64,000 bases of DNA, from the sequence record OZ335964.1; one strand, written 5' to 3'. Below the pieces are notes generated by a model. It was given only the letters and a program-made list of their open reading frames with translations. It had not been told where the DNA came from and did no database searches. This document shows positions 20,644 to 42,279 of this stretch, piece after piece. The stretch's first letter is position 1. Each line of letters starts with the position of its first letter. The translations under genes were made by a program, and so were the position numbers. Source of the stretch: a phage.

Positions 20644-21444
20644 TTACACGCGAGCACCGTAGATCGTGCCTACTTTATCCCAGCGAGGGGCATTGCCAGT
20701 AACAGCCTTACCAGCTGCACCAGCACCACTGGCATTATAGTTTGATGTACGAACGGCAGCACCACCAGCCGCACCAACGTTACCACCAGCACCACTCATG
20801 TTATTACCATCAACGGTTACTTTACCACCTGCGGCGGTTAACGATGCATTACCACCATTACCACGACCACCACGACCACCTGTACCGAAAGGACGACCAC
20901 CACCGCCGCCTGCAACGCCAGCTAATGTGAAGTTATAGTCTATGGACCATCCGCCGCCGCCACCGCCACCGCCAGCAATTGCACCATTATTCGTAATACG
21001 TAAGCGTGTACCGATGCCATTATTGATCGCTGTACCCCCGGCGGTCGCACGAACTAAAGCATCTCCAGATCCACCACTAGACCCAGATCCGTTACCGCCA
21101 CGACCATATACAGTGACGCCGGAATTAATGATAAGAGTTACATATTCATTAGTTAATGAGCTAGGGAAATCCAGACACGGAACACCAGCAGAATTAGAAA
21201 CAAGATCCCCGGTAATAGTAACTACTACCGGAGTAGACCCCTGTGATTTTAGATAGTTAATCAGAGTATCTTTATTGTAGTTGTGGTTTGCACCAATGCT
21301 ATAATGAATCTCTTTAGAGCGTCCGACCATCGCCGACATATACGCCGGACGACCTAAGCGAACAGCTTGCATTGCGGCGCTCATCCACCGTTGACCAGTC
21401 TCAGCAACAGCCGATGATCCTACCCAACCTGCTTTAATTGCCAT
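20644..21444 (-). CDS. 38: gp38-like receptor-recognising adhesin with glycine-rich motifs (T2-type)
   Basis: 266 aa; N-terminus MAIKAGWVGSSAVAETGQRWMS resembles remembered T2-type gp38; C-terminal half has poly-Gly tracts (GGGGGGGG, GGGGGRPFGTGGRGG); GAGGAAACC RBS. Confidence 0.65.
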   Translation of the reverse strand: MAIKAGWVGSSAVAETGQRWMSAAMQAVRLGRPAYMSAMVGRSKEIHYSIGANHNYNKDTLINYLKSQGSTPVVVTITGDLVSNSAGVPCLDFPSSLTNEYVTLIINSGVTVYGRGGNGSGSSGGSGDALVRATAGGTAINNGIGTRLRITNNGAIAGGGGGGGGWSIDYNFTLAGVAGGGGGRPFGTGGRGGRGNGGNASLTAAGGKVTVDGNNMSGAGGNVGAAGGAAVRTSNYNASGAGAAGKAVTGNAPRWDKVGTIYGARV

Positions 21445-35793: not shown

Positions 35794-35935
35794 AGGGAAG
35801 GTAGCGAATCTTCCTTGTCTCCAACCTGCTAGCGGCCTAGCAAGTGAATGCTTTAGCGTACCGGATCACCCCATACGCTGCAATAAATGCGGCTAGGTGA
35901 CGTCCAAATCATTCTAACCGCGCTGTCTTTAGTTC
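35794..35935 (-). ncRNA. candidate small non-coding RNA or structured 3' UTR (between a late-promoter motif and an intrinsic terminator)
   Basis: about 140 nt with no ORF; TATAAATA on minus strand at 35948..35941; three stem-loops (GCGUA..UACGC, GCUAG..CUAGC, GGAAG..CUUCC) then terminator; T4 carries small RNAs (rnaC/rnaD) in the equivalent neighbourhood. Confidence 0.3.
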
Positions 35936-35939
35936 ACTA

Positions 35940-36158
35940 TTATTTATATCGCTTTCTCTCGCGACGTTTTTGATCTTCTTCCTTGATAGAGTTAAATGCA
36001 TCAAAAAGACACATGACACTGATAATGAACATAACCGTATTTTCTACGATATCCCACGGCTTCGCATCAGTACAGATCCCCCAAACGGTAAGAAATGCAA
36101 ATAGTGCAGAAGAGATCACAAGCATGATACTTGCTAAGATATAAAAAGTCATTTTCAT
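35940..36158 (-). CDS. small hydrophobic membrane protein
   Basis: 72 aa, TM helices, basic C-terminus. Confidence 0.45.
   Translation of the reverse strand: MKMTFYILASIMLVISSALFAFLTVWGICTDAKPWDIVENTVMFIISVMCLFDAFNSIKEEDQKRRERKRYK
35941..35948 (-). promoter_or_regulatory. T4-type late promoter motif TATAAATA on minus strand
   Basis: plus-strand TATTTATA; precedes the ORF-free 140 nt stretch ending at a terminator. Confidence 0.4.
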
Positions 36159-36337
36159 GGTTTTACCTCAATTCTTCGATATTCATCACACATCCACGCA
36201 GTAAGCAAGAATCCCAGCACATAAGCAACAAAATACGTTAATGCTTCTTCTGGTTCTGTGCTGTGTATCATCATTAAACCAGCTAGAACGGTCTTAACAA
36301 TTACATTTAAAATAATTAGCCACGCAAATAATTTCAT
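36155..36337 (-). CDS. small hydrophobic membrane protein
   Basis: ATG at 36337 in ATGA overlap with upstream gene. Confidence 0.45.
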   Translation of the reverse strand: MKLFAWLIILNVIVKTVLAGLMMIHSTEPEEALTYFVAYVLGFLLTAWMCDEYRRIEVKP

Positions 36338-36558
36338 CGTTTGCCCCATTTCGGTCGAGTCTTTTCAAACTTATACATTCCGTAACAATCTCGAATCATC
36401 CACGTAACAAGAGCACCAGTCAACACAGACAATACACAGAAGAAGTAAAACGGTCCGGTTGCATTATCAACATGAGCAAGCCAGGTAAAGAAAACACATG
36501 CTAAGAATGTGAAGAACATCATAAAACACAAGAAAGCAAAATATTTTATGCTACTCAT
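36334..36558 (-). CDS. small hydrophobic membrane protein
   Basis: ORF track starts with TTG; ATG at 36558 with GGTGG RBS. Confidence 0.45.
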   Translation of the reverse strand: MSSIKYFAFLCFMMFFTFLACVFFTWLAHVDNATGPFYFFCVLSVLTGALVTWMIRDCYGMYKFEKTRPKWGKR

Positions 36559-36661
36559 AGCGCCACCATACAACAGATCATAAGAAACCCCAACGCAATA
36601 AGAATTGCATCAAATTTAGTGAACTCAGGTCCACCTATCAACATCATTCGTTCCTGTTCAT

Positions 36662-36859
36662 TCATAGATCACAGAGCCATCTTAAAGCACCACATAAAGC
36701 GAGCAGAATACTAGGTATAAAAGAGACCAAAACAAGTTCGCAAAAATCATCTAAGGTAACACCGGAATAGCTACCTACTGTAACAACACCGATCATCAGA
36801 CACAGAAAGAAAACAAATGCAATCAGAAACAAAGTATTGCTAAACAGTTTAGTGATCAT
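36662..36859 (-). CDS. small hydrophobic membrane protein
   Basis: ATG at 36859 with GGGGTG RBS; longer track ORF would overlap upstream gene. Confidence 0.4.
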   Translation of the reverse strand: MITKLFSNTLFLIAFVFFLCLMIGVVTVGSYSGVTLDDFCELVLVSFIPSILLALCGALRWLCDL

Positions 36860-37052
36860 TAGACACCCCACGACGATCAATTTCAAAAACTTTTTTATCA
36901 TCAACGAAGCATGTCACAACTGCCTCGTTGACTTCCGCAAATTGTTGTGTTACCCACTTAAGGTCAGATCGAAACAATGTTTTGTTAATAACAAATGTTT
37001 TACCGCTCTTATCCTTACCCATAAATTTTGCTTTAACCATATCCAATTCCAT
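36849..37052 (-). CDS. hypothetical protein
   Basis: 67 aa soluble; AAGGTGATAAT leader. Confidence 0.45.
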   Translation of the reverse strand: MELDMVKAKFMGKDKSGKTFVINKTLFRSDLKWVTQQFAEVNEAVVTCFVDDKKVFEIDRRGVSNDH

Positions 37053-37763: not shown

Positions 37764-37770
37764 TATAAAA

Positions 37771-40259: not shown

Positions 40260-41402
40260 TTAACTATTGATCATATCAATGACGTTTTGTAGCTCTGATA
40301 TGGATAGCGTTTCTGTATATCCATCGGGCATATCTTCTTTACTAACATAGAAACCTTTATACTTTTTCTTTATTGCACATTCCATAGAAAGAGCATCATC
40401 ACCGTTATCGTATTTTTTATAAAATGTCAACTCATGACGAAATATAGATTTTGAAGATTGGTTTTGTATTCTTTTTATTAATCTGTTGTTGGTTATACCA
40501 AATTTTATAGCAACCGCAACATCTTCTTTGTATAAAGTTTGTACATAAATGTATGCAGGTTTATTCCTCTTAAATCCATGATTGCTACACATAGGGCAAC
40601 CGCTATTTTTTGATACGTAGTCTCCTAAGTTTGGCGTAAATTCATGTCCGCTACTACAACGCATTACCAATTTTGTTTTTAGCATTCCTCTATACTCACC
40701 GCCAACAAAATCAACAAATGTATCACCTTTATCAATCGCCTTATCTGTTATTTCCTTTACTACTTGCTCAGTTGACTTCTTGTTTTTACCTGAACATAGT
40801 TTACATCTAGATCCATTAACTAAAAACGAGTGACCAGATGCAGTATATTCATGTCCATTAGGACATTTAACTAAGATATTTCTTTCATAAAAATCTTTAT
40901 AATCAGACACATAGCCAATAACTTCGTGGTCTTTTTGGGCATTCCTCATCTCTGTTAGCAACTCTTCGCTATTCCAGCGTTTACCCTTAACGCAGAGACA
41001 ACCATGACCTTGATAAAGATATATAAATTTCTTAGTAAAGTTTTTGTTACAGTCAGGGCAGTGCATTAGTAATTCTGTCATTTGACCTGTATACCCTTTA
41101 GGAATATCGATCAATGTGTATTTTCCGCATATTGTCTTTAATGCATCATCTATTCTTTCTTTGGTCCAGCGTAAGCGACCAGTGCATTCATGACATTTTA
41201 CACCCAGTCTAAGAGTATCTAAACTAAATATAGTTGACGTATGTCCTTTATCACATTTTAACTTAAATCTAGTATCCTTTGCGTTGGTGTATTCTCCAAC
41301 TAGACCATACCATTCATAACCACATGGGATATGTTCTTTTACCTTCTCTAGATATACACCGAACGGTCTAGGAACTGAATTAGGTTTTCTTTCTTTAGTC
41401 AT
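40260..41402 (-). CDS. multi-zinc-ribbon protein with C-terminal GIY-YIG-like (T5orf172-type) nuclease domain; probable free-standing homing-endonuclease-like gene
   Basis: 380 aa; four about 45 aa Cys modules (CDKGH..CHEC, CPDC, CPNGH..CKLC, CSSGH..CPMC) then KPAYIYVQ...KFGITNNRLIKR; inserted between gp3 and gp2. Confidence 0.5.
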   Translation of the reverse strand: MTKERKPNSVPRPFGVYLEKVKEHIPCGYEWYGLVGEYTNAKDTRFKLKCDKGHTSTIFSLDTLRLGVKCHECTGRLRWTKERIDDALKTICGKYTLIDIPKGYTGQMTELLMHCPDCNKNFTKKFIYLYQGHGCLCVKGKRWNSEELLTEMRNAQKDHEVIGYVSDYKDFYERNILVKCPNGHEYTASGHSFLVNGSRCKLCSGKNKKSTEQVVKEITDKAIDKGDTFVDFVGGEYRGMLKTKLVMRCSSGHEFTPNLGDYVSKNSGCPMCSNHGFKRNKPAYIYVQTLYKEDVAVAIKFGITNNRLIKRIQNQSSKSIFRHELTFYKKYDNGDDALSMECAIKKKYKGFYVSKEDMPDGYTETLSISELQNVIDMINS

Positions 41403-41457
41403 ATTTTATATCCTGTAAATTAAAGCGCCGTCACCAGCGGCGCTATTTTTATAATCA

Positions 41458-42279
41458 TTAAAACAATTTCCACACCTTACGAGCATCATATTTCTTGTCT
41501 TTGCTCATAAACTGGTAGGTCGGAAGATACACGACCGTGCTCCAATCTTTTGGTGCGATCTCAATCAGTTTTGTTTGGATGTGTCCAGGCAAATATGCTT
41601 TGATCATGTGGTCTGCGCCTCTCATACCTTTAACATCACTCCATTTAATTTTTAAACGAGTTTTATTACTAAGAGTAGGTGTACTCGCGTATTGTCGCAA
41701 CAACGCTTCTAAGAACTGCTGGCGAGCTTTAGGTGGCGCATAGTGCAAGTTCAAACCTAGCATAATCTCGTTTCCCGCTTTAGATGTACCAAATCCTAGA
41801 CAGATAATCAAGGGGTATCGGTCAAAGAATGGCAAAGAATCCCGATATTTTGGGTTATACGCATAAGTATAGATCCGTCCCACTTGTGGTTTTACTACCT
41901 GATGACCTTTTACACCCGCCTTGATAGTCTTCATAAACCATTCTTGCGACTTCTCTTTAGGGCGACTCTTTGATACAGCACGCATAGACGCACGAAAATC
42001 ATTAATCATCATCATTGCGCGTTGCTGCTTATTGAGACCCTTTGCGCCTTTCCCTTTTAGTTTTTCAACTTCTATTGCTGTTTTAATTTCGCTGGCATAA
42101 CGAGACATACTTTTAGTGAAAGTTGCATAGGCTATTCCCTTAGAATCTGCAAATGCTTTAGCTGTCATGCCTTTGGCTTTTGCTTTCGCAAATTCTACAC
42201 CCAATTCGACCCACTGTTTAGACTTTCGTTTTTGGGGAGACGGCTTTTCGTCTTCTGTGATTATTTCAAATACGCTCAT
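41458..42279 (-). CDS. 2: DNA end protector protein gp2
   Basis: 273 aa; size and position match T4 gp2. Confidence 0.8.
   Translation of the reverse strand: MSVFEIITEDEKPSPQKRKSKQWVELGVEFAKAKAKGMTAKAFADSKGIAYATFTKSMSRYASEIKTAIEVEKLKGKGAKGLNKQQRAMMMINDFRASMRAVSKSRPKEKSQEWFMKTIKAGVKGHQVVKPQVGRIYTYAYNPKYRDSLPFFDRYPLIICLGFGTSKAGNEIMLGLNLHYAPPKARQQFLEALLRQYASTPTLSNKTRLKIKWSDVKGMRGADHMIKAYLPGHIQTKLIEIAPKDWSTVVYLPTYQFMSKDKKYDARKVWKLF

Follow-up and report, generated by a model that had tools for sequence, protein, structure and literature searches.

The interval between the dmd operon and its terminator

The 64,000-nucleotide stretch of phage DNA analysed here (sequence record OZ335964.1; below called the window, with all positions counted from its first letter) carries on its minus strand a long non-coding interval between the stop codon of a small membrane-protein gene and the following intrinsic terminator. 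The interval spans 147 nt (35940-35794), has stop codons in all six frames and, judged by its sequence and that of its relatives, appears to belong to a new, family-less, terminator-ended structured RNA located in the 3' untranslated region (3' UTR) of an early operon and confined to one phage genus. A sequence-only reading of the window had proposed a candidate small RNA (sRNA) at this place, pointing to a T4-type late-promoter motif, about 140 nt free of a plausible open reading frame (ORF), three stem-loops and a strong terminator. The motif was located exactly as claimed, and both the lack of a plausible ORF and the terminator were confirmed. The hairpins were also recovered but their number was not, since there are four of them ahead of the terminator. 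The features of the locus are collected in Table 1.

The window's strong terminators were listed, and the distance to the nearest same-strand upstream ORF stop was measured for each of them. The distance between stop codon and hairpin is 148 nt here, in comparison with 4-11 nt at nine other strong terminators, which makes this gap a clear outlier within the window. The interval is thus an additional module set into an otherwise very compact design. The terminator itself has all the features of an intrinsic one: its stem of 9 bp, 5 of them G-C, is capped by a UUCG loop and followed by TTTTATT. Its sequence is invariant among relatives, and the annotations of GEC-3S, G5211 and G37-3 and, for the opposite strand, TB34 list it as a terminator. 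In the GEC-3S annotation, the terminator and the promoter are marked and the 147 nt are left blank. None of the records examined has an RNA annotated at the interval, and the papers describing the PeSL cassettes of these phages (see below) do not mention it.

Table 1. Positions of the structured interval, its hairpins and the flanking features in the window
Feature	Position	Strand	Description
dmd	36849-37052	-	Followed by the five small hydrophobic ORFs
Upstream 72-aa membrane ORF (phrog_15168)	36158-35940	-	Final gene of the early operon with dmd and five small hydrophobic ORFs
T4-type late-promoter motif TATAAATA	35948-35941	-	Overlaps the final two codons and the stop of the 72-aa ORF
ORF-free structured body, 147 nt	35940-35794	-	Inserted between stop codon and terminator
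Stem-loop 1 (SL1)	35921-35889	-	8-bp stem, internal bulge, 4-bp stem, UUGGAC loop
Stem-loop 2 (SL2)	35879-35855	-	7-bp stem and 2 apical pairs
Stem-loop 3 (SL3)	35848-35820	-	Stem of up to 12 bp (UUCACUUGCUAG / CUAGCAGG-UUGG region), GCCG loop
Stem-loop 4 (SL4)	35814-35796	-	GGAAG / CUUCC, 9-nt loop
Intrinsic terminator	35791-35763	-	AAGCCACUC-UUCG-GAGUGGCUU, then UUUUAUU; hairpin 35791-35770; marks where the element and the preceding early operon end
Near-consensus sigma-70 early promoter	35738-35710	-	TTGACA-17-CATAAT; PeSL cassette; serves the ORF at 35663-35478; context, outside the RNA
Downstream 61-aa ORF (Pfam DUF7421)	35663-35478	-	Next gene after the sigma-70 promoter

By its sequence, the window is assigned to a Krischvirus, that is, to an RB49/JSE-like T4-type coliphage. 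A 1-kb query around the interval returned 59 phage records with 97-99% identity, all of them Krischvirus (RB49, phi1, JSE, GEC-3S and relatives), with vB_EcoM_PTE-Eco09 as the top match (99.1%). Conservation in relatives had been named as a check by the sequence-only reading, and it was borne out: the 147 nt are present in all 59 Krischvirus records, as a single copy in each and with 97-100% identity. When 50,697 phage records were searched by blastn with settings for distant similarity, no other phage gave a copy. The element was also found in ten metagenome or viral contigs (L004, L033-L038 and L040-L042); scans of viral contigs with the exact patterns of SL1, SL3 and SL4 returned only the same two contigs, and a metagenome scan gave three further near-identical copies. 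Nothing similar was detected in E. coli genomes, plasmids and 185,579 bacterial species genomes beyond the generic terminator hairpin. One contig, L041 (OQVL01013596.1), keeps SL1-SL3 and diverges after GGAGAC into 57 nt at the contig end, which had no match in the phage collection; this contig may be a chimera.

The genes near the interval are transcribed from the minus strand. According to the annotation of relatives, the gene order is 57B, small ORFs, dmd, five small hydrophobic ORFs, the interval and more small early ORFs. The five hydrophobic ORFs (65, 36, 79, 64 and 72 aa; 35940-36859, minus strand) follow dmd in succession with overlapping stop and start codons, and they fall into PHROG families with no assigned function, all confined to the Krischvirus-type group. 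The last of them ends with TAT AAA TAA (Tyr-Lys-stop) and terminates inside TATAAATAA (35948-35940). Its protein forms only 6 clusters, with identity of at least 83%, among 5.8 billion proteins. In some GenBank records, coding sequences (CDSs) were called that cover the element together with the terminator and early promoter (L032, 783-926; L031, 817-963; L026, 874-975, minus strand; L003, 1882-1992). These calls conflict with one another in position and strand and are probably gene-caller artefacts. Close relatives differ in this region by frame-breaking changes, namely 1-2 nt indels in SL2 and a T-run of variable length.

Sequence constraint and secondary structure

Since a mosaic block in two contigs, L033 and L038, inflates the contrast between the element and the upstream gene, constraint was tested by comparing sites within the shared high-identity block in 17 relatives. 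The core of the element was defined as 35935-35882 plus 35853-35764, comprising 144 sites outside SL2. Only 7 of these 144 sites were variable, compared with 15 of 62 third-codon positions of the downstream gene (Fisher p=1e-4), which is the best-conserved neighbouring gene, and 38 of 72 third-codon positions of the upstream gene (p=1e-15). The region from the PeSL promoter to the Shine-Dalgarno sequence (24/100, p=2e-5) and SL2 (10/28, p=2.5e-5) were also more variable than the core. Nucleotide diversity had values of 0.006-0.016 in the core, compared with 0.10 for SL2 and 0.05-0.22 for silent sites. Relative to the window, the upstream ORF of the most divergent contigs has changed in up to ~20% of its nucleotides, with the interval nearly unchanged. 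Overall, the core, including its loops and linkers, is under purifying selection that exceeds the effect of the recombination block, and SL2 evolves at about the neutral rate.

Single-sequence folds gave the four hairpins ahead of the terminator. The sequence of SL1 is invariant but for one C>U change in the loop, and all 12 of its pairs, two of which are G-U, are unchanged in the 16 distinct variants. The apex of SL2 is hypervariable, with 9 variants and indels of 1-2 nt, whereby the stem is maintained. SL3 is invariant except for a basal C>A change, with 1 unpaired cell in 192, and it contains a paired GGAG at 35823-35820. For SL4, an alternative was given by RNAalifold and by the fold of the body alone: a 9-bp long-range helix (35939-35931 / 35811-35802), which uses the loop and 5' arm of SL4 (35811-35802) together with the 5' end of the element and closes a four-way junction. 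A single A-U>G-U change in L033 is consistent with SL4, and no covariation among the 16 variants discriminates it from the long-range helix. Since this helix needs bases lying 5' of the predicted late start (see below), its full formation would be possible only in read-through transcripts.

The body alone folds with a minimum free energy (MFE) of -50.0 kcal/mol (z=-2.75), a value equalled or improved upon by 2 of 200 shuffled sequences. For the stretch that begins at the predicted late start and ends with the terminator, the MFE is -64.5 kcal/mol (z=-4.4), and none of 200 shuffles was as good. By strand, the MFE was -66.2 for the minus and -60.0 for the plus strand.

The comparison of structures was based on an alignment (A2) of 16 distinct variants. 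Five stem pairs vary, and all varying cells remain standard pairs. Within SL2, 4 of 9 pairs vary and every cell is paired. Its columns 63/86 are G-C in 13 variants, G-U in one (L033) and A-U in two (L004 and L037), which is a completed compensatory change with the intermediate seen. Columns 62/87 and 65/84 show A-U>G-U and G-C>G-U changes, respectively. Altogether, five G-U pairs are invariant and a further 14 G-U cells are variable; on the plus strand, all of these would be A-C mismatches. This speaks for an RNA in the direction of the genes, rather than for a plus-strand RNA or a site in duplex DNA.

Transcription and comparison with known RNAs

T4-type late promoters serve gp55/gp33/gp45-loaded RNA polymerase. 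Such a promoter consists of TATAAATA alone, at -13 to -6, and RB49 has a T4-like late-promoter consensus in which the T at -13 is less strictly conserved (PMC1524935). With the motif in this position, the predicted late start is G35935. The motif is not enriched in the window, with 4 copies in 64 kb compared with 6.9 expected. The other three copies (25963, minus strand; 42780 and 53593, plus strand) are intergenic and lie 30-45 nt 5' of an ORF start with a ribosome-binding site. As all three are sited like genuine late promoters, the copy at the element is a plausible promoter as well. It is invariant in 18 of the 19 relatives covering it. In the remaining one, L040 (MAVA01000028.1), a 14-nt deletion takes out TATAAATAATAG and two extra A's shift the end of the upstream ORF; the RNA body is intact. 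The final part of the upstream ORF contains no sigma-70-like promoter, and middle promoters of the MotA type are absent from RB49 (PMC1524935), so that early in infection the element would be the 3' end of read-through transcripts. The 3' end is arranged in the order SL4, CUAUA, terminator and U-run.

The terminator has a second context. The PeSL (promoter-early stem-loop) cassettes of RB49 and phi1 (Arbiol et al. 2010; Comeau et al. 2014) combine a near-consensus sigma-70 promoter, an AT-rich upstream tract and a stem-loop, and they are repeated in the hyperplastic regions of these genomes (PMC2839356). Only 35791-35710 fits this definition, with the terminator hairpin, the AT-rich tract that separates it from the sigma-70 promoter, and the promoter itself. 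PeSL cassettes are repeated and have their hairpin a few bases past the stop codon (4-11 nt in the window), in contrast to the 147-nt body, which is single-copy and lies between stop codon and cassette. Look-alikes that agree with the published cassettes recur in the early region, on the minus strand, at 37764/37727, 23072/23032, 20637/20599 and 10013/9975, where the hairpin, often AAGCC...GGCTT, follows the stop codon by 5-6 nt and the TTGACA promoter comes ~38-40 nt further on. Since several terminators of the same style in the window each have an early promoter, the terminator of the element is probably part of a PeSL and not specific to the RNA. Two other hairpins of the window were seen in the same survey: a 12-pair terminator-like hairpin at 21207-21233 (minus strand) lies inside a 266-aa ORF (21444-20644) rather than after a gene, and a GC-rich hairpin at 41424-41444 may be bidirectional, since it is scored as a terminator in either direction; it separates the ORFs 40260-41402 and 41458-42279, which look convergent. 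The 61-aa DUF7421 ORF following the PeSL promoter has relatives with 75-80% amino acid identity in phage genomes of ~50 kb (loci L007-L022), and in the TB34 annotation its best match is from a Shigella siphophage. The relatives in ~50-kb phages suggest gene exchange across phage families beside the PeSL promoter.

A scan of the whole window against Rfam 15, also among the checks named by the sequence-only reading, gave no family at the gathering thresholds. The best sub-threshold matches (E<=10) scored 15.7-22.8 bits against thresholds of 41-100 and represent terminator-driven noise. RNAI (RF00106) and other multi-hairpin, terminator-ended sRNAs resemble the element in having several hairpins followed by a terminator; they differ from it in score (22.8 vs 47 bits for RNAI and 21.5 vs 100 for EF3314_EF3315), and the element has no replication-control context. 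That the interval does not fold into a tRNA cloverleaf, as had been stated from the sequence, held in both tests applied. ARAGORN with default settings found no tRNA gene in the window and, when relaxed to an 80% threshold, yielded nothing but a meaningless call of 91 nt with an anticodon of 2 nt; T4 as a positive control gave 8 tRNAs. The Rfam tRNA model had no match even at E<=10, and a tRNA or tmRNA was therefore rejected. A possible likeness between SL1 and the D-arm and anticodon loop of E. coli tRNA-Asp was given no weight.

The small RNAs of T4 to which the sequence-only reading had referred, rnaC (species 1) and rnaD (species 2), are the only ones known and are still without an assigned function (PMC3014915). 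They are similar to the element in being small non-coding RNAs of the early strand located downstream of 57B, so that the equivalence of map position stood; a similarity of sequence or architecture did not. Both T4 RNAs belong to the tRNA cluster, immediately adjacent to tRNA-Arg, and lack a terminator, and rnaC carries a tRNA-like T-arm hairpin, GGUUCGAAUCC, which is absent from the Krischvirus element. Unlike them, the element has its own terminator and possibly its own promoter, in a phage with no tRNA genes, as is the case for RB49-type phages in general (PMC1524935). Neither nhmmer nor blastn-short found a match of the element in the T4 tRNA/rnaC/rnaD region, in T1-like loci or in the rest of the window. 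Given the lack of sequence similarity and of a T-arm and the different formation of the 3' end, the implied kinship with rnaC and rnaD was rejected.

A target site for RegB/S1 was considered as well. The sequence GGAGACAAGGA (35823-35813) departs from the consensus GGAGRAYARAA by a C at position 6, which is rare in substrates, an A at 7 and a G at 10, and its GGAG is paired in SL3. This candidate was also discarded.

Enterobacterial sRNAs derived from 3' UTRs, such as DapZ and MicL, carry an Hfq-binding 3' module and are transcribed from a promoter of their own that lies in the final part of the gene before them. By analogy, the element is similar to them in its place directly after the stop codon, in sharing the terminator of the mRNA and in the promoter motif within the last codons. 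The succession of 3' hairpin, A/U-rich stretch, terminator and U-run and the predicted length of ~170 nt also fit. In contrast to these sRNAs, which are transcribed from a host sigma promoter and have a short single-stranded seed, the element has a phage late (gp55-type) motif and is GC-rich and multi-hairpin with frozen loops. Moreover, its U-tail is short, and no target was found in the window.

Function of the element and rival explanations

We consider it quite probable that the interval specifies a functional RNA element of some kind in the sense (minus) strand. Early in infection, transcripts from upstream sigma-70 (PeSL) promoters would cross dmd and the five small membrane-protein genes and stop at the terminator, which would make the element the 3' UTR of these transcripts at the very least. 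In the late phase, transcription from the gp55-type promoter TATAAATA would begin at about G35935 and end at the same terminator, thus giving a free RNA of ~170 nt. The element might act as the operon's 3' UTR, be made as a free late sRNA of ~170 nt, or do both, and we favour the last of these. Of the two options offered earlier, a new sRNA and an extended structured 3' UTR, the part common to both is supported, that is, a non-coding interval of outlying length with a constrained core and sense-strand pairing. The chances are about even, in our estimation, that the element, in addition, builds up as a separate sRNA and does more than stabilise the mRNA it belongs to. Sequence-specific recognition by a protein or another RNA is most likely, since not just the stems but also the loops and linkers are frozen. 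By analogy with the enterobacterial 3'-UTR sRNAs, our best guess would be a stable, trans-acting sRNA of a similar build, either regulatory or sequestering. The boldest version of this proposal is the first dedicated trans-acting sRNA of a T4-type phage, ~170 nt long and late-switched, with SL1, SL3 and SL4 either sequestering a host or phage protein or pairing with host RNAs; this we regard as rather unlikely.

Several observations weigh against a functional late sRNA. The mosaic block accounts for some of the contrast between element and upstream gene, as L033 and L038 have high identity from ~35970 through the downstream gene to ~35440. The covariation is thin, with a double change in only one pair, and 7 of 500 column shuffles reached the observed covariation score, a proportion which, according to the tool, is not a probability. 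It cannot be stronger because the mean identity is 98%; and with only 6 clusters in the family of the 72-aa ORF, the lineage is narrow and deep covariation is unobtainable. As to transcription, the late promoters of RB49 were found by Nolan et al. only upstream of late-gene orthologues (PMC1524935), and a literature search gave no transcriptome, 5'-end or abundance data for any Krischvirus. If it is not an assembly error, the loss of TATAAATAATAG in L040 may mean that the promoter is dispensable or that the motif coincides by chance with the Tyr-Lys-stop codons. Past the stem, the free U-tail is short, with the sequence UUUU A UU; an opening of the two basal A-U pairs would give 6 U. Within the window, no complementarity of at least 12 nt to the element occurs elsewhere, and in RNAduplex predictions with 103 translation-start regions, the element did not outperform shuffled RNA. 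There was likewise no similarity of the element to host DNA in the E. coli genomes, plasmids and bacterial genomes searched, and no trans-acting sRNA had been characterised in any T4-type phage by the time of a 2010 review (PMC3014915).

As the main rival, the element would be a 3' UTR that serves the early operon solely in cis, for instance as a 3'-exonuclease barrier, as a site of docking or processing where an RNase or RNA-binding protein times the decay of early mRNA, or as a fold-back partner, in which case a free sRNA would be irrelevant. We hold this to be a possibility, but a tentative one. The element is indeed co-linear with the early operon and has the terminator in common with it, the long-range helix is complete only in read-through transcripts, and the body is kept without the promoter motif in L040; moreover, the decay of early mRNA is extensively controlled in T4-type phages (PMC3014915). 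However, nine other operons of the window manage with 4-11 nt between stop and terminator, so that a plain exonuclease barrier needs no 147 extra bases, and frozen loops and linkers exceed the needs of a stabiliser. The sole GGAG is a poor RegB/S1 match and is paired, and no complementarity to the 5' regions of the operon was found. The other alternatives are unlikely. For a non-functional relic, such as a decayed gene or the remnant of an insertion, the conservation would only be apparent and caused by recent recombination at PeSL cassettes among Krischviruses. The region is hyperplastic, PeSL-rich and subject to modular shuffling (PMC2839356), the high-identity block of L033 and L038 covers both the element and the downstream gene, this gene itself seems to have been exchanged with ~50-kb phages, and there is a possible junction within the element in L041. 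Against this stands the comparison inside the same block and genomes, where downstream silent sites are five times more often variable than the core and the PeSL promoter region is more variable too. Variation clusters in the apex of SL2, changes in the stems preserve pairing, and no Krischvirus genome has lost the element, which altogether makes a relic quite improbable.

A role at the level of DNA, with the inverted repeats as protein-binding sites or as part of an origin or recombination site, would be suggested by the short palindromes GACGTC and GCTAGC in the stems, by a conservation of sequence that goes beyond pairing alone and by the AT-rich tract after the terminator. The invariant G-U pairs and the single-sided changes (A>G in a 5' arm, C>U in a 3' arm), however, pair only in minus-strand RNA and are irrelevant to duplex binding, duplex DNA offers no reason for the compensatory G-C>A-U change in SL2, and no iterons or repeats were found; we judge such a role very improbable. 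The two remaining explanations have hardly any chance of being correct. A tRNA-like RNA or a diverged rnaC/rnaD homologue, as a vestige of the T4 tRNA cluster downstream of 57B, would agree with the T4 map, where the tRNA cluster, rnaD and rnaC come after 57B on the same strand, with the absence of tRNA genes from RB49-type phages (PMC1524935) and with the four-way junction formed when the long-range helix is included. It is largely refuted, as ARAGORN, Rfam (E<=10), nhmmer and blastn all gave no credible match, and rnaC has the GGUUCGAAUCC T-arm and no terminator, the reverse of what is seen in the element. Short open stretches for a very small protein do exist, namely a 19-codon ATG ORF at 35911 and a 25-codon TTG ORF at 35824-35747, in addition to the CDSs annotated there in several records. 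There is no Shine-Dalgarno sequence at a usable distance, the SL2 indels and the T-run shift the frame among close relatives and break every short frame, and the annotated CDSs are mutually inconsistent and cross both terminator and promoter.

Overall, the preferred reading of a functional sense-strand RNA would add to the Krischviruses a genus-wide, strongly constrained and so far unannotated RNA element, located in a hot spot of gene shuffling near the anti-toxin gene dmd. For annotation, it would be of use because spurious protein genes have been placed over the element in several GenBank records. Even if it is only a 3' UTR, it would still be unusual for this phage and would indicate a specific control of the dmd operon mRNA. 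If it does prove to be a trans-acting sRNA, possible roles would be the late reprogramming of the cell or the blunting of host defence; as the operon is shared with the antitoxin-like dmd, an anti-defence role is worth testing.

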